A stretch of 64,000 nt of DNA from Candidatus Latescibacterota bacterium. Its GTDB lineage: Bacteria > Latescibacterota > UBA2968 > SICM01. Below, one piece after another: positions 1,462 through 46,667 of this stretch. The notes under the pieces are model-generated. The model saw nothing but the letters and a program-made list of their open reading frames with translations, had not been told where the DNA came from and ran no database searches. The stretch covers positions 2,752,001 through 2,816,000 of the forward strand of contig CBDCJO010000002.1 of the NCBI GenBank assembly GCA_965217865.1. The letters are read 5' to 3'. How positions within the stretch are numbered: the first letter of the stretch is position 1; each line of letters begins with the position of its first letter. The position numbers were made by a program, and so were the translations under genes.

Positions 1462-1615
1462 ACAAACCTCCTCAGGAAATTAAACGATAAGATTGTCTCA
1501 ACTCGGCAAGAATTTCCACATTCACACCCTTAAAAGGGACATCCGCGTGACACACATGGTCCAAAATATTTGAAACAAATTAACCATTACCACTATATAT
1601 GACATGGTTTTACTT

Positions 1616-1631
1616 TGGCACAGAGATTGCC
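1616..1631 (+). promoter_or_regulatory. Sigma-54 (-24/-12) promoter candidate
   Basis: TGGCACAGAGATTGC has exact GG-N10-GC spacing, follows an AT-rich tract and lies upstream of the 1868 gene. Confidence 0.6.
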
Positions 1632-1867
1632 TCTGCTTTTTTCCAATCCTCTTAAGGAGCAAAACCTAAATCTATCATACCTGCGAAATTGATCTGGGTT
1701 TGTCGGCTTGTGACAGGCCTGTTTCTAAGGCCTATGGGACACAATTACACCAACATATGAAACATTGAAACTTATGGGCTTTCAACTCCGAAGTCAAGGG
1801 AAAAGACTCCCTTGGCTGCTCTTCGCTGTTTCCTCAACGGTTCAACCTCAAGAAAGAGAGAAAAACC

Positions 1868-2747
1868 ATGAAACCTCGATACCTGGTTAGCCTTCTTGCA
1901 GGAATTTGCCTGGTCTGCGGCGTCGGACGCTCCGCGTGGGCGGCCTCGGCCGTTACGTTGCCCGACGAGTTTCCAAACGGAGCCACGGAAACGCCCGACA
2001 AGAGCATTCACACGCGATTGGAAGCGTATGACTGTTGGGATGCAATTCAACCTGGGGAGTTCGTTTCGTCTCGAGGCCGGACTGGAGAGAGGTTTGTCCG
2101 ATGATTTGCCTGAGCTGACCGGGTTGGTAGGCATTCGGATCGTGGGCCGGGGTGGAAAAAAAGCCAGAAAGCTAGAGATGGAGCGTGAGAAGATCGCCAC
2201 GGAGGAGCTGGGTGGCGTCAAGGAGGGGGAAACCGTGCAGGTGGCCGTGGCGAACTTCGCCGGACTTGAGGATCAACGCGCAGGAAAGAAGGTCGGCGAG
2301 CACATCCGATCCGTCCTCTCCTCTTACAACAAGGTGCGCATCGTGGCCTTACGAGAAGATCCCGTGTTCCTGGATCTGGATGGAGCGCTCGAATTAGCAA
2401 AAGCCAGCGGGGCTGACCTGGTCATCACAGGGAGAATACTCAAATACAACATGGTCCGAATGCCAAGCGCACAGGTCCCCCTCATCGTCGGGTTTCCCAA
2501 GACCGTTTCGGAAGTGGAGGCGGATATTCGAGTCGTCGAACCCAAAAAGGGAGCGATGGTGCTTTCCGGAAGGTTGAACGGGCGGGGGGAGCAGCGACAG
2601 GGTATCCGGTTGCTGCCCACCAGCAGCGACGACCAGATGACCTATCTTGGAGCCCGGGAGAAGGAGCAGCTGAGAGATAAGGCCGTTCGAAATCTGGTGA
2701 CGCATCTGATCGCCGCGATGAGAACAAATTTCAAGTGGATGAGATAA
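1868..2747 (+). pseudogene. Secreted protein with CsgG/LpoB-like C-terminal domain, disrupted near 2015
   Basis: A signal-peptide ORF (MKPRYLVSLLAGICLVCG...AWA) starts at 1868. Protein-like sequence continues in another frame (DWKRMTVG...VAVANF...GADLVITGRI...EADIRVVE). Confidence 0.55.
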
Positions 2748-2787
2748 TCAGCTGAAAAAACAGGATCTTATAGACCTCTATTTCACT

Positions 2788-3687
2788 ATGAAACTTGCAA
2801 AGGCTTTGGTTATTGCTTATACTCAGCTTAAACGCTGGGCTCGAATCAGACGAATCTATTTCGTAGGAACTTACCTTGTAATAGCCGTGTGCCTTCCCCT
2901 GGCATTATGGATGGGTTGCGGGTCAGGTCCTTTCCAGATCTCAGGTCCCTCGTCCGATGATGAACCGGTCGGTTTTGCCCTCGTCTCGGCCGATGTCCCG
3001 CTCTACATTCGGGGAGTCATTCAAAGGGTCAACGTCGACATAACCACGGCGGACACAAGCCGAATGGCGCCCATCCTCCGTGAGATGAATTTCCCGATTC
3101 CAGGCGGAAGCCTCGCAGCTGGCGAAGTGACCGACATTTCGGTGGGGCTGAGGTTGTTCTCGGTTTCGGCCTTTGATACGCAGGAGGCCCTCCGTTTCCA
3201 AGGTTCTGTCATCGATAGCATAAGGCCCGGGCAGGCAACCACGGTGTCGGTTCCGTTGAATCGCATCGGAGGCACGCTTCGATTTACGGTTTCCCTCAGC
3301 AGGGTCGACATCAGCGACTCTCTGGCGGTGATACTTGAGGGGACATCGGTTCTGGATATCGTCGAATTAGGAGCAAAATCGGATATGCCCAGACTTGCCC
3401 TGGCCTCCACCCCGATCGTCAGTTTTACCCGGGATGGGAGTGTCTTTAGCCGGCAGATTACGATTTCTCAGGTGCCCACAGGACAACGACTATTTGCAGG
3501 CAACCTTCGCGACCTAAGCCTGGGAAGCCGTTTCCTGTCCTTCACAGATACGGTCTCCGCAACCGTGGACACGGAAGGGGTCATCGACGTGAAATTCTCC
3601 ATGCAGCGGGTGGATCGTCTGCTGAGCGACCTCGAATTTGTCTTACCCTCGGACAGCACAATCGTCGTCATCTCTCCTAACTTTTGA
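2788..3687 (+). CDS. Hypothetical beta-rich lipoprotein
   Basis: 299 aa ORF with a hydrophobic stretch ending LALWMGC (lipobox-like). The true start may be downstream. Confidence 0.65.
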   Translation: MKLAKALVIAYTQLKRWARIRRIYFVGTYLVIAVCLPLALWMGCGSGPFQISGPSSDDEPVGFALVSADVPLYIRGVIQRVNVDITTADTSRMAPILREMNFPIPGGSLAAGEVTDISVGLRLFSVSAFDTQEALRFQGSVIDSIRPGQATTVSVPLNRIGGTLRFTVSLSRVDISDSLAVILEGTSVLDIVELGAKSDMPRLALASTPIVSFTRDGSVFSRQITISQVPTGQRLFAGNLRDLSLGSRFLSFTDTVSATVDTEGVIDVKFSMQRVDRLLSDLEFVLPSDSTIVVISPNF

Positions 3688-3735
3688 TCTGTATTCCCAA
3701 AACACGAAAGACGGTTAAGATAGGGTGTTACCCAA

Positions 3736-4314
3736 ATGTCCTCTCGATCCCGTAAAAGGTTAATCCGGACCCCGCCCGATTCTCCTCAGATCGTCCTCCC
3801 GTTTCCCGACACGGATCCCCAGCACCCGAAAGGCTCCGGCCAGGCCGTCTGCTTCTACTGCGGCAGATTATTTCAGGCTCCCGTGTGGGTTTCACGTGAA
3901 CGGCTTCAGGTTGTTTTCTGTGGCCAGGCATGCCGAAAGGCGTGGGAGGAGGTCCCCGATGAAGACGTTCTAAGGCTCGGCGGTCGACCTGAACATCGAG
4001 GAGGAGACTGGGAGATTTGGGCAAAGAATGCCCGTGAACGGGATGGGTTTTCCTGTCGGGGTTGCGGAGCAGTAGAGGAGGTCCTTGGAAAGAAACTTCA
4101 CGTTCACCACATCGTTCCCTACCGGCTCTTTCCGCTGGGACGTGAAGCCAATCGCCTTGACAACCTGATCTCATTGTGCCCCGCCTGTCACGCCCGCACG
4201 GAGGCCGAAGGTTTGGATGCGCTCCCCCTTTTCAGTAAGATTCGCCGTCAATCCGGGTTGGAGATACGAATTGAACAGGTTGACCCGAATCCGGAACCAC
4301 CTCCCGGGGATTAG
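3736..4314 (+). CDS. HNH endonuclease with N-terminal zinc finger
   Basis: CFYC...FCGQAC zinc finger, then RERDGFSCRGCG...LHVHHIVP...NRLDNLISLCPACHARTE HNH core. Confidence 0.88.
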   Translation: MSSRSRKRLIRTPPDSPQIVLPFPDTDPQHPKGSGQAVCFYCGRLFQAPVWVSRERLQVVFCGQACRKAWEEVPDEDVLRLGGRPEHRGGDWEIWAKNARERDGFSCRGCGAVEEVLGKKLHVHHIVPYRLFPLGREANRLDNLISLCPACHARTEAEGLDALPLFSKIRRQSGLEIRIEQVDPNPEPPPGD

Positions 4315-4564
4315 GGGCTGTCTCCAAGCAGATCACTTCCACACGTTATGAATATGGCCAGGCTTTTCCCCTCCCTATGGAGGGGTTATTCTTATCCATA
4401 ACACGATATCGACCGACCGGTTGGGGCTGGAAATCTCACTTGATTTCATTCAATAAAATTGATATTATTCGTTTAATTGTGAATTTTTTCCAAACCGTTT
4501 GGGAGCATTCCCCTTCGGCGGATTTTACCGTTACCCCGAAATCGAAAAAGAAGAGCGTCCAACG

Positions 4565-5326
4565 ATGAACAAAGACCTCGGTCCGATCTTGGAAGACTGG
4601 GAATATCACCCGGATGAGGTTTCGGTGCGGAAGATCGTCGGGCTTGACGGGAAAGAGAAGATCCAGCTCCGTTTGGAACTCGGGTTGTATCAGATGGAAA
4701 CCACCGGCAGACCCGACGGCTCCCGGCCTCACGGCAAAAACTCTCTCCTGGATTACTACTTATCGGTTTTGGAAAACCCCCGTCAAAAATACGGATCCAA
4801 TGAACAATTCAAGTTAAGCAGCGAGGACTGCGGTAATCTCCGCATGGAATCCCTGCAATATTACCATCGGCGCATCAGTTTTTTCGAACTGGCAGAATAT
4901 GCGGCTGCGGAGAAGGATGCGGAACATAATCTTCAGATCATGGACCTTCTCAAGCAATATGCCGAAAACGAAGCGGATCGAATGCATTCTGAACAGTTTC
5001 GCGCGTTCGTGCTAATGCATTCCACTAAAGCTCGTGTACACCAGAGCCTGGATCGAAAGGACTACCAATTGGCCATATCCCAAATCGACGAGGGAATCGA
5101 ACATATCGAGATTTTTTTCAAAGAGTACGGCCGGATGGACCTGATCGAGAAAGCCATGGAAATCGCGTTTCTGCGAAATTGGCGGGATGAAATCGTCAAG
5201 GACCGCCCATTGAGCGAACCCGAACGTATCGAACAACAGCTTCAAGAGGCCGTCGAACGGGAGAATTTCGAACGGGCGGCCAAGTTACGGGACCGCTTGC
5301 GAGAGCTTCGCCCAAAGGGACATTGA
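4565..5326 (+). CDS. UvrB/UvrC (UVR) motif-containing protein, paralog 1
   Basis: GRPDGxRPHG motif and a C-terminal UVR motif LQEAVERENFERAAKLRDRL. Confidence 0.85.
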   Translation: MNKDLGPILEDWEYHPDEVSVRKIVGLDGKEKIQLRLELGLYQMETTGRPDGSRPHGKNSLLDYYLSVLENPRQKYGSNEQFKLSSEDCGNLRMESLQYYHRRISFFELAEYAAAEKDAEHNLQIMDLLKQYAENEADRMHSEQFRAFVLMHSTKARVHQSLDRKDYQLAISQIDEGIEHIEIFFKEYGRMDLIEKAMEIAFLRNWRDEIVKDRPLSEPERIEQQLQEAVERENFERAAKLRDRLRELRPKGH

Positions 5327-24642: not shown

Positions 24643-24669
24643 AGACAGGTTTCCTTGAGGTCTCGGCTT

Positions 24670-25995
24670 ATGACGCCGCTGAATCGATTCGGTTCCGCCT
24701 CGGACCTGGCTGATTGGGTGTCCGACGCTCGGGCGCGGACCTTCGAGCTGGTCGCTGACCTGACCGACGAACAGCTGATGGGTCCGCAGCTCAGCATCGT
24801 CAATCCCCTGTTGTGGGAGATCGGACACCATGCCTGGTTTCAATCCAGGTGGGTGCTCAGGCAGGCCAGCGGCCAAAAGCCCGTTCGCGAGGACGAAGAC
24901 ACCCTTTACGATTCCATCGCCATCCCTCACGGTACGCGGTGGGACCTGCCCCTGCCCTCCCGTGAAGAGACCCTGGCTTACATGCGCGAAGTCAGAGACA
25001 GGGTGTTGGAACTCCTCCAGGCGGGTGAGCCATCCGATGAGCAGGCCTACCATATCATCTATACGACTTTCCACGAGGACATGCACACCGAAGCCCTGAC
25101 ATACGCGCGGCAAACCCACGGTTATCCACCCCCCCTCCTGTCAATCGTTCCTGAACCCGAGGACCAGCCGGCCGTAGGAGATGGATCCCTTTCCGGGGAT
25201 GTCGAGATCTCAGGAGGAAAATTTATGCTCGGGGCCTCCCGGGAAGATCCCTTCCCTTTCGACAACGAAAAGTGGGCGCATACGGTGGAACTGGAGACCT
25301 TCTCCCTGGCTCGAGCCCCGGTCACCCAGGCCGATTTTACCGCTTTCGTGGCCGATGGCGGGTACCGCCGCCAGGAGCTTTGGAGCCAGGAGGGTTGGAA
25401 CTGGCGGGAGACCGCAAACGCAGAACATCCGGTCTACTGGCGGGGGAATTCCAACGCCGAATGGTTCCGCCGACATTTTGACCGATGGGTCCCGCTCGAA
25501 CCCCATCGCCCTGTCCTTCACGTCAACTGGCATGAAGCCGAGGCGTATTGTTGCTGGGCGGGGCGCCGGTTGCCGACCGAAGCTGAATGGGAGATGGTCG
25601 CTGCATCCGAACCGAACCGAATCAGTGGGGGGCTTGCACCCCGGAAGCGGCCCTATCCCTGGGGCGATGAGGCCCCGGCCGGAGGCCCTGCGAATCTGGA
25701 CTGGGGGGCAATGGGGTGTGTGGATGTGGGGGCATTTTCCGCGGGCGATAGTGCCATCGGATGCCGTCAGATGATCGGAAATGTCTGGGAATGGACCAGC
25801 AGTGTTTTTCTTCCCTACCCCGAATTTGTTCCGGATCCATACAAAGAATATTCAGAACCCTGGTTTGAAACCCGAAAGGTCCTCCGGGGGGGGTGTTGGG
25901 CGACGCGTTCCCGGTTGATACGCAACACCTATCGAAATTACTATACCCCCGACCGGCGGGATGTTTGGGCGGGGTTCCGAACCTGTGCGCCATAA
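24670..25995 (+). CDS. senA: Selenoneine synthase SenA (EgtB-like DinB + FGE-sulfatase domains)
   Basis: NPLLWEIGHHAWFQ signature, HEDMHTE iron motif, RLPTEAEWE, GNVWEW, GFRTC; immediately followed by a SenB homolog. Confidence 0.85.
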   Translation: MTPLNRFGSASDLADWVSDARARTFELVADLTDEQLMGPQLSIVNPLLWEIGHHAWFQSRWVLRQASGQKPVREDEDTLYDSIAIPHGTRWDLPLPSREETLAYMREVRDRVLELLQAGEPSDEQAYHIIYTTFHEDMHTEALTYARQTHGYPPPLLSIVPEPEDQPAVGDGSLSGDVEISGGKFMLGASREDPFPFDNEKWAHTVELETFSLARAPVTQADFTAFVADGGYRRQELWSQEGWNWRETANAEHPVYWRGNSNAEWFRRHFDRWVPLEPHRPVLHVNWHEAEAYCCWAGRRLPTEAEWEMVAASEPNRISGGLAPRKRPYPWGDEAPAGGPANLDWGAMGCVDVGAFSAGDSAIGCRQMIGNVWEWTSSVFLPYPEFVPDPYKEYSEPWFETRKVLRGGCWATRSRLIRNTYRNYYTPDRRDVWAGFRTCAP

Positions 25996-25998
25996 ATC

Positions 25999-26952
25999 AT
26001 GAAAATATGCTTGATAACGCCGGCCCCTCCACACTCAAGAAAAGGAAACCGGGTGACCGCCCTTCGATGGGCCCGAATCCTCCGAGGACTTGGCCATCGC
26101 GTGGAGGTCCAGGAGGCGTATCGCGGCCAATCCTGTGACCTGATGGTTGCCCTTCACGCCCGCCGCAGCTTTCCCTCGATAAGTCGCTTTCGACTCGAGC
26201 GCCCCCGTCTCCCGATCGTCCTTGCCATGACCGGAACCGACCTCTATGGGGATATCCATACCGACCCGAATGCCCGCCGGTCGCTCGAAATGGCCTCTCG
26301 CCTCGTGCTCCTTCAACGCACGGGCCTCTTGGAACTTCCAAAACCATTGCGATCGAAGGCCCGGGTGATCTACCAGTCTGCAGGGTGACCGAAGGGTCGT
26401 TTTGCCCCCCGGGCGGGGGTATTCGAAGTCTGCGTTCTGGGTCACCTCCGGGAGGTGAAGGATCCCTTCCGGACTGCCGCTGCCGCCCGGTTGCTCCCCC
26501 CGACCTCGCGCATCGAAGTGCTACAGATCGGAGGCGCCCTCAGCCCGGAGATGAGAGACCGGGCCCGGTCCGAGGAGAGCTCCAATCCCCGTTATCGCTG
26601 GCTTGGGGAATACCCCCGCTGGAAGGCGCTTCGCATCCTGGCGCGTACCCGCCTGCTCGTATTGACTTCACTTATGGAGGGTGGGGCGAATGCGGTCTCG
26701 GAAGCCCTCGCGTGTGCTGTCCCGGTCCTGTCGTCGATGATCTCTGGGTCGATCGGAATTCTGGGCGAGGACTATCCGGGATACTTTCCGGCCGAGGACA
26801 CCTCAGCCCTCGCCAAATTGATGGCCCGTGCCGAGGGGGATCCCGAATTCTACCGGGACCTCAAGCGCCGGTGTAAACGGCTCGCCCCCCTGGTGTCCCC
26901 CACCCGCGAACGGGAAGGATGGAATAACCTCCTCCTGGAACTCTCCCAATAA
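25999..26952 (+). CDS. senB: Selenosugar synthase SenB glycosyltransferase, interrupted by in-frame TGA at 26386-26388
   Basis: ITPAP...GNRVTALRW, LHARRS, TGTDLY, then QSAG*PKG...GHLREVKDPF, EGGANAVSEA. Both halves are in the same frame. Confidence 0.8.
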
Positions 26953-32111: not shown

Positions 32112-35136
<3,025 letters not shown>

Positions 35137-35210
35137 AACATAATTTCTTTTGGCAGATGGCTCTCGGCCTTGGCGATGAGCCGAGTTTCCGTATTCGATT
35201 CAAATTCGAC

Positions 35211-35242
35211 AAGCAGGGGCGTGTCTCGGCGCGCCCCTGCTT
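35211..35242. terminator. GC-rich hairpin after 23S (terminator or processing/stability stem)
   Basis: AAGCAGGGGCG...CGCCCCTGCTT, with no clear U-tract on the + strand. Confidence 0.5.
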
Positions 35243-35284
35243 AATATTCATAAGTTGGTACGGCCGTAAAGGCGAAGACACCTC

Positions 35285-37717
35285 GTGATTTGCCCCAAGG
35301 ATAATTCGGTGAGCGATCGATTTTTCCAGCCGGTTCGAGTGATGGTGCCGATTTCTCTGGTTTTGATCCTCACCATGGGTATAACGATCCCGGTCTGGAG
35401 CGAACCATCGCCTTCCGAATCCCCCACACATCCAGGCCTCGCACTTGCCGAATCAGAACGAAAACGGTTGGGGGAGATCGAGCACTATGGCCTTATCTTG
35501 ACTCAGAAAGCGTTTCCAGGCCTTGCCTCACGAATCCGAGAGTCCGATACGGTTGGGCTGAAGCAGGTGTTCTCTCCTTCATTTCGGGGTGAAAGCCTGG
35601 AACCGGAATCCAGCCGCAACCTGATGGACCTGATCCACGTTCGCCGGTCCCTCACCGATCCGTCACGTGTCGCTCAACCGAAAACCGCGGAGGGATTCGC
35701 TCATTATCTCACTGAGTTGCGAAAGGGGTTTCAGTCCAATCCGAAGATCGGTTTCGCACTCCGAGGATTGGCACCCACAAAGAAAAATCAATACAATGGG
35801 AGCTGGAAAGGGAGTTGCCTGTTACGCTTTGCCGGACGATCGACCGACGGGGGCCCAAAGGAGACACGTCTGGAGTTGGCATTCCGTCTTTCCCGAATTC
35901 CTGAGGTAGAGAAAATAGACGAAGCCACAGGTTGGATCGCAGAACTTCGCGTCCTCGATTTTCGGGATGTGGCCGCCGCCATTCCGCTGATGGAGGAGGT
36001 GGCGAAGGAGAGAGGAATCGACCCCGTCAAGTTCTACGACAACTGGATAGCGGATCTGACAAATCGCCCGGTGAACACCGGCGGGGCCTATGTCGCGGAT
36101 TTCGACAATGATCTTCGACTCGACATCCTGATTACCGACCTGAACGGCCTGTTTTTTTACCGGAATCAACCGGACGGAAATTTCGCCGAAGTCGCGACTC
36201 CGGCCGGTTTACCCAGATCGCTTCCCCCTTACCCTACTGTGGCTTTGGGAGATTTCGACAATGACAATCACGTGGACCTGGTTCTTGGACCGATTGTCCT
36301 GAGAAACCGGGGGGAATTTCAGTTCGAAGATATCTCACGAAAGACGACCCTGGAAATGCCGGAGTTGGCCACCGGATGTACCGTGGGCGACTATGATCTG
36401 GATGGCCGACTGGACATCTACGTTTCCCGGAGCTCCGGCAGCGTTCAAAACACCTCCTGGATCGACGGACCCGGGGGCCCGGGGAACCAGTTGTGGAGAA
36501 ACCTGGGTGATTGGCGGTTCGAAGAGGTCGCGGAGAAAGTCAACGCGACCGCAGGAAACCGGTCGGTTTTTACGGCGGCCTGGCTGGACGTCAACGACGA
36601 CGGCCGGCCTGACATATACGCAATCGGCGAATTCGGTCCCGGTGTCCTGCTGGTCAATCAACCCGATGGGACGTTCAGGGAAATGCCGCTGGAGCCGGAC
36701 GACGGAGACTTCGGAACCATGGGGCTCGCGGTGGGGGATTACAACAACGACGGCCACGTGGATGTCTACACGGCGAATATGTACAGCAAAGCGGGGCGGC
36801 GCGTCATTGACAATCTCTCTCCGGCTACTTATCCTCCAGAGATCCTTGCACGGATCAAGCGTTTCATCACCGGCAGCGAGCTATATCGAAACGATGGCAA
36901 TCTCGGGTTTCACCGCGTCGGGGAGGCCATGGCCCTGAAGGATGTCGGTTGGACCTATGGTTCGACCTTTGTAGACCTGGACAACGACGGCTATCTGGAC
37001 CTTTATTCCAACGCCGGATTCTCCAGTGTCACCCGCGCCAAACCCGACGGGTGATCGTGTGTCTGGCAGGCTGTCGTGTCACAGCCGTTCAACCGTGCGG
37101 CGATCGTTCCGCCGCCACGAACACCCGACCAACGGATCGGGGAGTTCTGGGTGGCGAACCCCTGGTTTGTCAGCGGCAGCGGATACAACCTGAGCGGTTA
37201 CGAACGGAATCGTGTCTATCTCAACAACGAAGGGAAGGACTTCGACGACATATCGGCCTTGACGACTGCCGATAGTGACGGCGACGGGAGGGCTGTTGTG
37301 GCCGGGGACTTCAACGGCGACGGTATGGAAGACCTGCTCGTTCGGCAGGCAGGCGGGGGGCCCCTCCTCTTGTTCGAAAACCGATTTCCGAAGAAACACT
37401 GGCTCAAGGTTTCCTTGCGCGGAACCAGGAGCAACTCGAAGGGAATCGGGTCCCACCTGGAGGCGAAGGTCGCCGGGCGCCGCATCGTTAGAGAATTGTA
37501 CCCCGTTAACGGATTCATGGCCCAGAGCCCTGCTTATGCACACTTCGGCCTGGGGGATGAGACAAAAGTAGACGAACTCACGGTCCGGTGGCCTTCCGGA
37601 CTCGTTGAGCACATCAAGGACGTGAAGGCCGACCAGCACCTTGTGTTGACCGAGGGGACCGGGGGTAAATCCCGCGCCCTCCTTTATTCTAAACGCGTAT
37701 CTGAACAATTGAAATAA
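35285..37717 (+). CDS. FG-GAP/VCBS repeat + ASPIC-UnbV (CRTAC1-like) protein with in-frame TGA at 37052-37054; candidate selenoprotein
   Basis: ORFs 35285..37054 and 37076..37717 share a frame, joined by KPDG*SCVWQAVVSQ. Multiple DxDxDGxxD repeats; C-terminal AHFGLG...VRWPSG...ADQ. Start uncertain. Confidence 0.8.
37069..37086 (+). promoter_or_regulatory. Candidate bacterial SECIS hairpin
   Basis: GGCTGT-CGTGTC-ACAGCC; the loop starts 20 nt after UGA and has G at loop position 2. Confidence 0.55.
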
Positions 37718-37835
<118 letters not shown>

Positions 37836-37841
37836 TTAATT

Positions 37842-37878
37842 TAGAAGCCCGAATCTCAATCCGAGATTCGGGCTTCTA
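37842..37878 (+). terminator. rRNA operon terminator
   Basis: TAGAAGCCCGAATCTC-AATCC-GAGATTCGGGCTTCTA followed by a T-rich tail. Confidence 0.8.
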
Positions 37879-38131: not shown

Positions 38132-39821
38132 CTACGCCATACTTCCTCCCGGAAGTCGAATATCTTGAATGATTCTCTGCACGTGGGCCGGGGGCTCACT
38201 CGTGAATCTGCTGACGATAAAGGCAACTGAAAAGTTCAACACCATCCCGACGGTCCCGATGCCTTCCGGGCTGATTCCAAATAACCATCGATCTGCACCT
38301 GCAGTGGGATCGACAAAACGAAAATAGATGATATAAAAACCCGTAAACAGGATCCCGCTGAGCATGCCGGCGATCGCCCCCTCCTTGGTGGTCCTTGTGC
38401 TGAAGATTCCCATGATGATGATGGGAAAGAAACTGCTCGCGGCCAGACCGAATGCGAAAGCGACCACCTGAGCGACGAATCCGGGTGGATATATCCCGAG
38501 AAGACCGGCGATGCCCACGGAAAAAGCCGCGGTAACGCGGGCATAAATCAGTTCGCGTTTTTCACTCATGTCCGGGTTGAGAACGCGTTTGAAAAGATCG
38601 TGGGATATGGCCGAGGAGATGACCAGGAGAAGCCCGGCAGCCGTGGAGAGCGCCGCAGCCAGCCCACCGGCCGCAACCAGTGCGACCACCCAGGCAGGCA
38701 GCCTGGCAATCTCTGGATTTGCCAGGACCATAATATCTCGATCGACAAATAGCTCGTTTTTTGTGCGATCGCCGCTGTAGTTGATAATCCCGTCGCCGTC
38801 CCGGTCCTCGAATTTGATCAAACCCGTCTTCTCCCAGTTTTTGAACCATTCCGGCGCATCCAGATAGGCCTTCTCGTGAAGGGTTTGGATCATGTTGACA
38901 CGGGCGAATGTCGGGAGCTGTCGTATAAAGAACTCCGATGCAGAGCAACGCCCAAAAGGCGCTGTAGCGGGCGGCCTTCACGCTCGGCACGGTATAAAAT
39001 CGAATGATCACGTGGGGAAGTCCGGCGGTGCCGACCATCAACGCCATGGCGATTGCAAATACGTCGAGCATCCCTTTTTTGCCCGACACGAAGGCTGCCG
39101 TGTATTCCGGAAGACCGAGGTCCCGATGGATGGCATCGATGGTTTCAAGGAGGTACATCCCGGCGTTTTCACCCTCTATGATCCGTGAACCTAACCCGAG
39201 CTGTGGGATCGGGTTCCCCGTCATCTTATAGGAAATCGCCACAGCCGGAATGAGATACGCCAGGATCAGGACAAGAAATTGGGCAACCTGGGTATAGGTG
39301 ATCCCCTTCATCCCGCCCAGGGTCGCATAGATGAGAACGACCGCCATGCCGATCATTACGCCCGTGTTGATATCCACTTCCAGGAAACGCGAAAAAACAA
39401 CACCCACCCCTCTCATCTGTCCGGCGCAGTAGGTGAAAGAGACAAAGATGGCGCAAAAGACCGCCACCAACCGGGCGGCGTTGGAGTAGTAACGATCTCC
39501 GACGAAATCCGGCACCGTGAACTTCCCAAACTTGCGAAGATAGGGGGCCAGCAGCAGGGCCAGGAGGACATAGCCCCCCGTCCAACCGATCAGGTAGACG
39601 GCTCCGGTATACCCCATAAAGGAGATGAGGCCGGCCATGGAGATAAAAGAGGCGGCGCTCATCCAGTCCGCGCCGGTGGCCATACCGTTGATCGCCGCGG
39701 GGATGCCCCGGCCTGCGATGTAAAATCCGGAGGTGGACTTCACCCGCGTGAATATCGCAATGCCGATGTAAAGGGTGAAAGTTAGGCCTACAATAAGGTA
39801 GGTCCAGGACAGGATGGTCAC
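38132..39821 (-). pseudogene. actP: Cation/acetate symporter ActP-like (SSS family), frameshifted near 38910
   Basis: GMATGADWMSAASF, GTAGLPHVIIRFYT, DIMVLANPEIA. YTTAP joins TFARVNMI out of frame, consistent with a short deletion. Confidence 0.8.
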
Positions 39822-44209: not shown

Positions 44210-46597
44210 TCACGCTGCGACCAATTCGACCTTCTCCTCGACCGTTTTCGGTATCAGGGCTTCGTTCAGAACCTGGTCCATATGTTCCACGAAGACAAAA
44301 CGCAAATCGCTTCTGACGTGTTCCGGGATATCTTCCAGATCCTTCTCGTTCTCCCCGGGGAGAAGAACCGTCTTGATCCCGGCCCGATGTGCGGCGAGGA
44401 CCTTATCCCGCACCCCCCCGATCGGAAGGACCTTTCCCCGAAGCGTCACCTCCCCTGTCATGGCAACTTCCCGAAAGACCGGGCGTTTCGTCAGGGCAGA
44501 GGCGAGGGCCGTGGTCAGGGTCACGCCCGCCGAGGGACCGTCCTTAGGAACAGCGCCTTCGGGGATGTGGATGTGGATGTCCAGCTTTTGGAGGACAGCC
44601 TGAGTCAACCCGAGTTGTTTTGCCCGGCTCCGGATATAGGTCATCGCCGCCTGACCCGATTCCTTCATGACATCCCCCAGATGTCCCGTCAGCATGAACC
44701 CCCCCTTCCCCGGAACCGTCACCGCTTCCACGAACAGGATCTGTCCCCCCGTAGGCGTCCAGGCCAGACCCGTTACCACGCCGACCTCGTCGGAGGTTTC
44801 AGCCATCACCGATCGGAATCGGACAGGCCCCAGGTAGCCCTTGAGGTCTTCCGCTTTCACCTGGATCGTCTCCTCCCCATTCCTCACCACCTGCCGTGCG
44901 GCCTTGCGGCAAACCGTCCCGATCTCCCGCTCCAGGTTTCGAAGCCCGGCCTCCCGTGTATAACCCCGAACGATCCCGGTGAGGGCGTCGTCCGAGATAA
45001 CAAGCCGTTCTGTGGAAAGTCCGTGTTCGGAAAATTGCCTGGGGATAAGGAAACGGCGCGCGATCTGCACCTTCTCGGGCTCGGTGTAACCCGGAAGCTC
45101 CAGCACCTCCATTCGGTCGAGGAGAGCGGGAGGCACGGTATGGAGGACATTCGCCGTTGTGATGAACATGACCTTTGAAAGGTCAAACGCAACATCGAGA
45201 TAGTGATCGAGAAACGTATTGTTCTGCTGGGGATCGAGCACCTCGAGCAGGGCAGCAGCCGGATCCCCTCGGAAATCCTGCCCCATTTTGTCGATTTCGT
45301 CCAACATAAAGACCGGGTTGTTCGACTCCGCTCTGCGAATGCCCTAGATGATCCTCCCGGGCATCGAGCCGATATATGTCCTCCGATGGCCGCGGATGTC
45401 CGCCTCGTCGTGGACACCTCCAAGGGACATCCTCACGAACTTCCGACCCAGCGCCCGGGCGATGGACTGGCCCAGGGAGGTCTTGCCGGTCCCCGGAGGT
45501 CCCGCGAGGCAAAGAATCGATCCCCTCATGTCGGGTTTGAGTTTTCGGACGGCCAGGTAGTCCAGGATCCGATCCTTCGGTTTCTGCAGGCCAAAGTGGT
45601 CCTCGTCCAGGATCTTTTCGGCCGCATCCACGTCGAGGTGATCTTCGGTGCCTTTGTTCCACGGAATTTCGATCAGCCAGTCCAGGTAGGAACGGATGAC
45701 CGAAAATTCGGCCGCTGCCGGAGGCATCTTCGACATCCGGTTCAGCTCCTTTTCGGCCTCCTTCCGGGCCTCATCAGGCATCTCGGCTTTGTCGATCTGT
45801 TCCTTGACTTCGTTCATCTCGGCGGCCTGTTCGTCGACCTCCCCAAGCTCCTTCTGGATGGCCTTGAGCTGCTCTCGCAGGAAATATTCCCGTTGGGTTT
45901 TGTCCATCTCCCCTTTTACCTGGGACTGGATCTTGCTGCCCAGCTCCAACAGCTCAAGCTCCCGGTTAAGAAAGCCGGTCAGAATCCGGAGCCTCTCCTC
46001 CACGTCCAGGGTTTCCAGAATCGACTGCCGTTCTTCACGGCTCAGGTTGATGTGGGATGCGATAAAATCCGCTTGCGCACCCGGACCGGGCAGGCTTGAC
46101 ATAGCCAACCCCAGCTCCTCGGGCATGTTGGGAGCCACTGAAACGGCTTTCTGGAAGAGACTCACCGCGTTCCGGGCCAGCGCCTCAAGCTCGACCGTCT
46201 TCTCGAGTTTCTCATCCGCCCGCTCTACCAGCCCCTTGAGATAGGGCTCCTCGTCGGTGACTTTCAAGCGCCTGATTCTGGCGACCCCCTGGACCAGGAT
46301 CTGCACGCCCCCGTTCGGCAACCTGAGCAAACGAGCGATCACGGCCGCAGTGCCCACGTCGTAGAGGTTCTCGGGCTTCAGTCCCCCCTCGGGGTCCTTC
46401 AGGGAGAACATCCCGACCATTTTGTCCTCCGATACCGCGGCCGCATCGATGGTCCGGACCCGCTCGGGCTCTGTGGATACAAGAGGAAAGAGCATGAAGG
46501 GATAGACCACTGCCTCCGCAGACGCGAGGATGGGCAGCGAAGCCGGAATCACTGTCTTCTCTTCATCGTGTCCCTGACCTTTATTTTCTACGGCCAT
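44210..46597 (-). pseudogene. lon: Lon protease with in-frame TAG at 45344-45346
   Basis: GPPGTGKT, GHRRTYIGSMPGRII*GIRRA (Gln position), [14 protein letters not shown]. Both ORFs are in the same frame. Confidence 0.9.
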
Positions 46598-46667
46598 GTC
46601 CAAACCCCGTTCCTGGTTGGCTGAATAGAAGGGAGATTCAAAACACCTGTTTTCGAAAACCTCCACC

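Follow-up and report, generated by a model that had tools for sequence, protein, structure and literature searches.

The window analyzed here, a 64,000-nucleotide stretch of a Candidatus Latescibacterota contig, contains a long reading frame for an FG-GAP/ASPIC-UnbV protein that is interrupted by one TGA, and the question it raises is whether that codon ends translation or is read as selenocysteine (Sec). An earlier note, made from the sequence alone, had proposed a propeller selenoprotein; of that overall reading, Sec decoding, the SECIS element, the domain layout and the placement outside the classical families were supported; its U-S-C site did not prove to be the motif of the family. Comparative sequence analysis makes it very likely that this UGA is read as Sec, and the product is a candidate selenoprotein. 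SelB acting on a hairpin downstream of the codon would allow UGA to be read as Sec, giving one likely exported protein of ~800 residues.

The open reading frame and its in-frame TGA

The TGA lies at positions 37052–37054 on the forward strand, within the K-P-D-G-[TGA]-S-C-V-W context that had first drawn attention to it (D-G-U-S-C-V-W with the predicted Sec). Read through with TGA as Sec from GTG 35285, the frame encodes 810 aa, as had been claimed, and contains no second in-frame stop. GTG 35309, with AAGGA 7 nt upstream, is the likelier start, giving a read-through ORF of 802 aa (35309–37717, +) that ends in TAA and places Sec at residue 582. The start at 35285 is disfavored because the contig of a relative has indels at 35287 and 35293, both upstream of 35309. 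A probable signal peptide was recognized by eye at 35309–35401 (+), with a basic residue, a hydrophobic core and V-W-S followed by E.

Contigs from four runs cover the region. One of 2668 nt from run X1, possibly the source of the window, spans 35102–37769 with 0 differences; a contig of a relative from run X16 spans 34991–37085 with 103 differences in 2093 nt, and an RNA-library contig of a relative from X18 (36735–37237) carries 18 differences, none of them in the TGA or the hairpin. The TGA is crossed by contigs from three RNA libraries, which attest presence in those libraries rather than expression level, strand or co-transcription, and parts of the gene lack RNA cover. Carried by independent DNA and RNA contigs, the TGA is genuine and not an assembly error; a sense codon at this point, which would have spoken against the earlier note, does not appear in them.

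Gene-finding cuts the ORF into 589 and 213 aa, and a footnote to S9 Table of PMC4807772 reports the same kind of splitting. This behavior of gene callers, together with a GTG found 6 to 8 codons past the TGA in most copies, is what one would expect if the TGA were a true stop and the locus two genes, a pseudogene or an error. Against this stand the independent contigs, and a stop here would remove the last propeller blade and leave a second piece without a signal peptide. We regard a true stop as most improbable, and return to it with the hairpin and the codon census below.

Within the same genome, no other paralogous match spans the Sec column. Two matches at C2:745–750 kb were considered as Sec paralogs and rejected as ordinary CRTAC1-like genes with terminal stops. 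Elsewhere in the window, a VC_2705-family sodium/solute symporter gene (38132–39821, −) is apparently frameshifted near 38890–38960, giving ORFs of 419 and 253 aa, and a Lon-protease-like gene (44210–46666, −, assigned by eye) is apparently broken near 45300–45350, its two ORFs (440 and 365 aa) lying in different frames.

The SECIS hairpin

The hairpin GGCUGU-CGUGUC-ACAGCC occupies 37069–37086 (+), exactly as the earlier note had described it: the stem strand GGCTGT (37069–37074) begins at the 15th base past the TGA and is followed by the loop CGTGTC (37075–37080) and the stem strand ACAGCC (37081–37086). The loop starts 20 nt after the UGA and has G at its second position, followed by U. The bacterial SECIS (bSECIS) consensus given in PMC13188914 comprises a loop of 3–9 nt, a stem of 4–16 bp, G in the first two loop positions, a spacing of 16–37 nt and a minimum free energy of −7.5 kcal/mol or lower, and the window hairpin fits this model, having a loop of 6 nt, a 6-bp stem, G as the second loop base, a spacing of 20 nt and −7.8 kcal/mol. 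Folded on its own, it was no more stable than shuffled sequences (z 0.04, 0.00, −0.90 and −0.10), a point that would suit a true stop; the significance of the hairpin therefore comes from its conservation.

That conservation is extensive. With the energy threshold set at −5 kcal/mol, the bSECIS model was matched by 140 of 142 distinct downstream regions, as against 527 of 5389 in-frame control positions (9.8%) and 522 of 2840 synonymous shuffles (18.4%); at −7 kcal/mol, the figures were 132 of 142 and 4.8%. At the nine loci with a sense codon in place of the TGA, the model was unmatched in six, weakly matched (−4.1) in one and matched in two. The loop starts 17–18 nt after the TGA in most clades and 20 nt after it in the D-G-U-x-C subfamily, to which the window protein belongs. 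Stem codons in this subfamily are nearly frozen (Ala+6 is GCT in 31/31 and Ser+9 is TCA in 24/28), and 99.5% of the alignment cells are paired, including five compensatory cells (C-G to U-A and U-A to C-G), with changes on both sides in two of the six stem pairs. None of 500 shuffles, which ignore relatedness, reached as high a covariation score, and control positions slid along the alignment paired in only 18–66% of cells. Applied to the whole genome, the model flagged 74 of 4361 TGAs, most of them noise, and did not pick up the selD of this genome.

Conservation of the codon across the family

The codon at the Sec column was scored in 160 loci (one being the window itself, one a duplicate, and nine being sense loci fetched deliberately), which gave TGA in 151, GAG in 3, TGC in 3, GAC in 2, CGC in 1, and never TAA or TAG. 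Among 151 genomes of the same phylum, each of the best 42 matches holds one TGA, at the same column in the 30 that were fetched. In a species-wide genome collection, the TGA stands at the column in 80/80 of the best 80 of 467 relatives, whose named groups include Verrucomicrobiota, Planctomycetota, Acidobacteriota, Latescibacterota and Gemmatimonadales, among others; TGA loci thus span at least four named phyla. A scan of 151 Planctomycetota genomes, in which 21 candidates were scored per genome, gave at least 62 matches (at least 55 with TGA, at least 7 without a stop and 0 with TAA or TAG), and a TGA copy was present in 32 of the 151 genomes.

The lack of any TAA or TAG among the 160 loci is difficult to reconcile with a true stop. 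The terminal stops of these same genes are mixed (TGA 61, TAG 45 and TAA 37; n = 143), and a true stop at the Sec column would therefore have drifted as well. Residues just past the TGA are also conserved and match those of sense homologs, such as S-F-F-W-R-Q-V-V.

Some loci showed further features. The planctomycete G256 has seven paralogs (L132, L148, L149, L153, L154 and L162 among the loci); TGA occupies the column in four of them, Asp or Glu in three. The propeller homolog L168 (G222:C78, frame at ~1600–4700, +) contains three in-frame TGAs, in the context D-T-U-S-V-F-W...D-A-L-U-A-E-A-U-G-H-L-A-R-Q-V, and is otherwise open to a thioredoxin tail; a hairpin located 18 nt past the third TGA and 30 nt past the second may serve both. 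The gene neighborhoods gave no conserved operon and no hint of a substrate, the commonest neighbors being other FG-GAP proteins (at 27 loci). One unannotated protein family adjoins nine U-x-C subfamily genes in planctomycetes (L043, L044, L047, L055, L056, L058, L060, L061 and L062).

Selenocysteine machinery and its co-occurrence with the family

All four components of the Sec pathway that the earlier note had suggested looking for are in the genome: selA (E 1.9e-173), selB (5e-106) and selD (2.6e-115) score over cut-off and tRNA-Sec (selC) is present. The genome's selD has its own in-frame TGA, in G-A-G-U-A-C-K. Within the phylum, selA occurs in 39/39 genomes behind the top 42 matches, against a background of 116/151. 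Among the named TGA loci, selA was found in 46 of the 50 genomes examined (of 78), and two of the four without selA have selB. In Planctomycetota, selA is present in 31/32 TGA carriers versus 76/116 genomes without a match (Fisher p 2e-4), though these counts and the p value are overstated, since kin are not independent, and the selA backgrounds are high (116/151 and 110/151).

A UGA read as Cys, Trp or another residue by some route other than Sec insertion would agree with the few carrier genomes in which Sec machinery was not found. Three TGA carriers were without selA and selB: G294, where the tRNA-Sec match was barely over cut-off, and G155 and G184, MAG/SAG records of unstated completeness in which nothing over cut-off was seen for selA, selB or tRNA-Sec. 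Such reassignment is nevertheless very improbable, because the genes themselves end most often in TGA (61/143), the hairpin fits a SelB-type model, carriers are enriched for selA, and Trp occupies the column in none of the homologs seen.

The claim that senAB lies nearby was also correct, with senA over the NCBIfam cut-off at 24655–25995 and senB directly after it. As evidence for Sec these genes were set aside, since senAB shows selenophosphate use only. The senB gene (TIGR04348, 25999–26952, +) itself contains an in-frame TGA at 26386–26388, in the linker Q-S-A-G-U-P-K, followed by a hairpin whose loop CGGGC begins 21 nt past the TGA. One TGA is present in 8 of 27 senB matches in the class, all at the same column and with a similar hairpin, the others having Pro, Ala or Arg. 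The senB TGA is a candidate for either a second selenoprotein or a selenium gate, and a literature search for a senB in-frame TGA returned nothing. Three further candidate selenoproteins, each with a fitting hairpin, were noted at G000:C2:5189034 (+), 3523264 (−) and 4921491 (+); two are redoxin-like N-F-F-G-W-x-U-P-x-C genes and one is a W-A-S-W-U-G-C gene.

Residues that replace selenocysteine

Scoring of TGA and Cys at the column, as the earlier note had advised, gave a divided result: TGA dominates (151/160), while Cys is rare and most sense homologs are variable. Only one Cys was found among 30 representatives spanning the column, the others having Ser (7), Glu (5), Ala (4), Arg (3), Asn (3), Asp (3), Leu (2), Gln, Ile and Thr, with one overlap among these counts. 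The 30 were selected from 150 hits, a list dominated by long FG-GAP repeat proteins, as those with a best-matching stretch that covers the column. Cys at the column occurs in a distant D-Y-C-T-x-F-W clade (3/160 loci) and in P0038. Such scarcity contrasts with nearly all known selenoproteins, as these are described in PMC13188914. Variable residues had been named in advance as an observation that would count against Sec; they are outweighed here because the TGA is conserved and the SECIS element covaries. In a FastTree phylogeny built from 179 rows thinned at 70% identity to 111, Sec is found in all large clades and sense rows nest many times within Sec clades, for which repeated loss of Sec is the likelier reading, the tree being unrooted.

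The diversity of substitutes bears on what the residue is for. If Sec acted mainly as a selenium-sensing gate, full-length protein would be made only when charged Sec-tRNA is available and the residue itself would matter little. At least ten different sense residues can replace Sec, the senB gene of the same genome has its TGA and hairpin in a linker that varies among homologs (Pro, Ala or Arg), and in one propeller homolog two extra TGAs fall in a variable loop, all of which would agree with a gate. A gate could move, however, whereas this position is the same in every deep clade and in multiple paralogs of one genome; the flanking Asp and Trp are invariant, and partner thiols track Sec. We consider a gate unlikely.

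Domain organization and predicted fold

Continuous FG-GAP repeats with an ASPIC-UnbV end, as the earlier note had it, were recovered by Pfam as six FG-GAP_3 stretches and a UnbV_ASPIC domain at aa 720–786, past the TGA. On the forward strand, the gene encodes an NTF2/SnoaL-like N-terminal domain (35435–35980; AlphaFold2 pLDDT 90.1; no Pfam match), an FG-GAP β-propeller (36080–37393) with seven DxDxDG-type motifs and the Sec in an insert past the sixth, and the ASPIC/UnbV domain (37442–37642; PF07593, E 7.7e-19). Foldseek matches to the N-terminal domain were modest, the top ones being nearly all NTF2-like (best E 3.2e-4, TM(target) ~0.6). A search of NCBIfam 20.0 matched 0 families, and thioredoxin Pfam models matched nowhere in the window protein, the fold of which is a propeller. 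A link to enediyne UnbV proteins may exist but plays no part in our conclusions; a literature search returned nothing relevant linking UnbV to enediyne.

An AlphaFold2 model, built from a 22-row alignment with Cys in place of Sec, had a pLDDT of 88.7 and a pTM of 0.90. It places Sec as the first residue of a predicted 10-residue helix, in the insert after the sixth FG-GAP motif. By analogy with the general propeller layout, this insert would sit on the face opposite the putative calcium loops. The best fold match was murine CRTAC1 (PDB 9etn; E 9.4e-24, 17% identity; profile E 1e-30; background in PMC10477339). The two proteins share an FG-GAP propeller followed by UnbV_ASPIC; unlike CRTAC1, the window protein adds the NTF2-like domain and helical inserts with the Sec, and it lacks an EGF-like tail. 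The CRTAC1 profile match leaves out the Sec region of the window protein. Compared with TlpA/ResA thioredoxins and with UxxC/UGC redoxin selenoproteins, its Sec lies in a propeller rather than a thioredoxin fold, and it has no tail.

The family motif and its partner thiols

The conserved motif of the family is D-x-U-x-x-x-W, with invariant flanking Asp and Trp. The U-S-C site of the earlier note is not general: Cys at +2 is present in only 41 of 151 TGA copies and marks a subfamily. In the window this Cys is encoded at 37058–37060 (+), and it is invariant in the D-G-U-x-C subfamily (34/34 loci, one duplicate). Most relatives have instead a TlpA/ResA-like thioredoxin tail, which the window protein lacks. 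Among 150 Sec members, 40 carry Cys+2 and lack the thioredoxin tail, the tail has an intact CxxC in 81 and a single Cys in 1, and 28 carry neither Cys+2 nor a tail, so that 29 of the 150 are without both Cys+2 and an intact CxxC tail. Of 35 members without Sec or Cys, no tail was found in 27, 5 had a degenerate tail and 3 an intact CxxC. On the tree, Cys+2 needs two changes, both in tail-less lineages; the tree labels for the tail are regex-based and undercount, and the direct member count was used instead.

Cys+2 and the thioredoxin CxxC tail are mutually exclusive, and a redox site is favored for this reason. A redox function of Sec is moderately likely as a prediction, with the partner thiols as its main support, a correlation among kin. 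Sec would then sit in a loop of the CRTAC1-like propeller and act as a redox-active nucleophile. Given Sec, it is fairly likely that the residue attacks an oxidized or electrophilic substrate outside the cytoplasm and that a partner thiol recycles it, this thiol being Cys+2 in the U-x-C subfamily and the CxxC of the fused TlpA-type thioredoxin in most other members. The NTF2-like domain may provide a pocket for a small hydrophobic substrate. Sec and Cys+2 share one predicted helix, and for this reason a direct Se–S bond would need local unwinding.

With U-x-C placed where a helix begins, a metal could be ligated here just as well as a Se–S bond formed. In this alternative the inserted Sec, soft and anionic, would ligate a metal or small molecule, the protein being a CRTAC1-like one that binds or adheres without enzymatic activity, and U-x-C would be a two-ligand metal site. 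Acidic residues often stand in for Sec (Asp or Glu in 5 of 9 sense loci and 8 of 30 representatives), and the closest folds are those of non-enzymes (CRTAC1 and fungal lectins). The CxxC tail, however, is intact in 81 of 82 tailed Sec members versus 3 of 8 tailed members without Sec or Cys, and electron transfer to Sec fits this pattern better. We consider a ligand role rather unlikely.

Position between the 23S and 5S rRNA genes

The earlier reading had missed that the gene lies between 23S and 5S rRNA genes. The 23S gene (Rfam RF02541; 32112–35138, +) ends 170 nt before the likely start codon, and the only 5S gene found in the genome (37719–37835, +) starts 2 nt past the ORF stop, followed by a 16-bp terminator-like hairpin (37842–37878, +). 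The genome contains a single Ala-TGC/Ile-GAT spacer pair. A terminator scan found none between the 23S gene and the ORF, a weak one inside the ORF and a strong one after the 5S gene, and we infer that in this lineage the message would be made as part of a single rRNA precursor. The 170-nt spacer (35139–35308) has a strong raw folding energy of −64 kcal/mol and includes a 14-bp hairpin.

Linkage to rRNA was rejected as a trait of the family: no rRNA was found at 20 subfamily loci or within 16 kb of a homolog from the same taxonomic family. The genome G108, also of this taxonomic family, has an ordinary 23S–5S spacer of 113 nt, which, together with the 0 of 20 subfamily loci near rRNA, marks the arrangement as a lineage-specific insertion.

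Relation to known selenoproteins and significance

The locus shares with bacterial SelB/SECIS recoding, as described in PMC13188914, an in-ORF hairpin with its loop at 20 nt, G-U near the loop start, and selA/B/C/D in the genome. It differs from the selenoproteins set out there in its non-thioredoxin Sec site and the rarity of its Cys homologs, and it falls outside the 119 families (2026) in Table 1 of that source. The earlier assertion that this is not a classical selenoprotein family agrees with that table and with NCBIfam 20.0. Term searches of the BSepDB and SelCysML main texts and of the deep-Sep main text with four supplements did not find the family, and a literature search for selenoproteins with ASPIC, FG-GAP or CRTAC1 returned nothing relevant, Haft and Tolstoy (2025) and Deng et al. 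(2026) being outside its scope.

A 2016 listing limits the novelty. S9 Table of PMC4807772 contains four ASPIC UnbV/FG-GAP selenoprotein candidates from planctomycetes P1 and P2, three of them with SECIS elements, each split in two genes by annotation, with Gly as the residue in the closest homolog and the label "hypothetical"; in the section consulted the candidates are not discussed and no motif, family survey or partner thiol is given. Likened by domains and description (the table gives IMG ids only), they are very probably members of this family, which is thus uncatalogued but once listed. What the present locus adds is the U-x-C subfamily and the rRNA-spacer position.

Taken as one joint statement, a large, exported β-propeller selenoenzyme family in which Sec is both ancestral and dominant, Cys forms are nearly absent, recycling is by U-x-C or thioredoxin, and the gene is here within an rRNA precursor, with several paralogs per genome in Planctomycetota, Verrucomicrobiota, Acidobacteriota and Latescibacterota, remains tentative, somewhat short of an even chance. 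If true, selenium biochemistry would gain a new catalytic scaffold, one that is extracytoplasmic and not of the thioredoxin type, and the CRTAC1 fold its first enzymatic role. A Cys-homolog filter cannot see a family in which the sense codons mostly encode Ser, Glu, Ala or Asp, and gene callers also split it. Separately, it is odd to find a protein gene lodged between the sole 23S and 5S genes. The short, tail-less U-x-C member would be the simplest to assay, and the family would offer a testable handle on the role of bacterial CRTAC1-like proteins.
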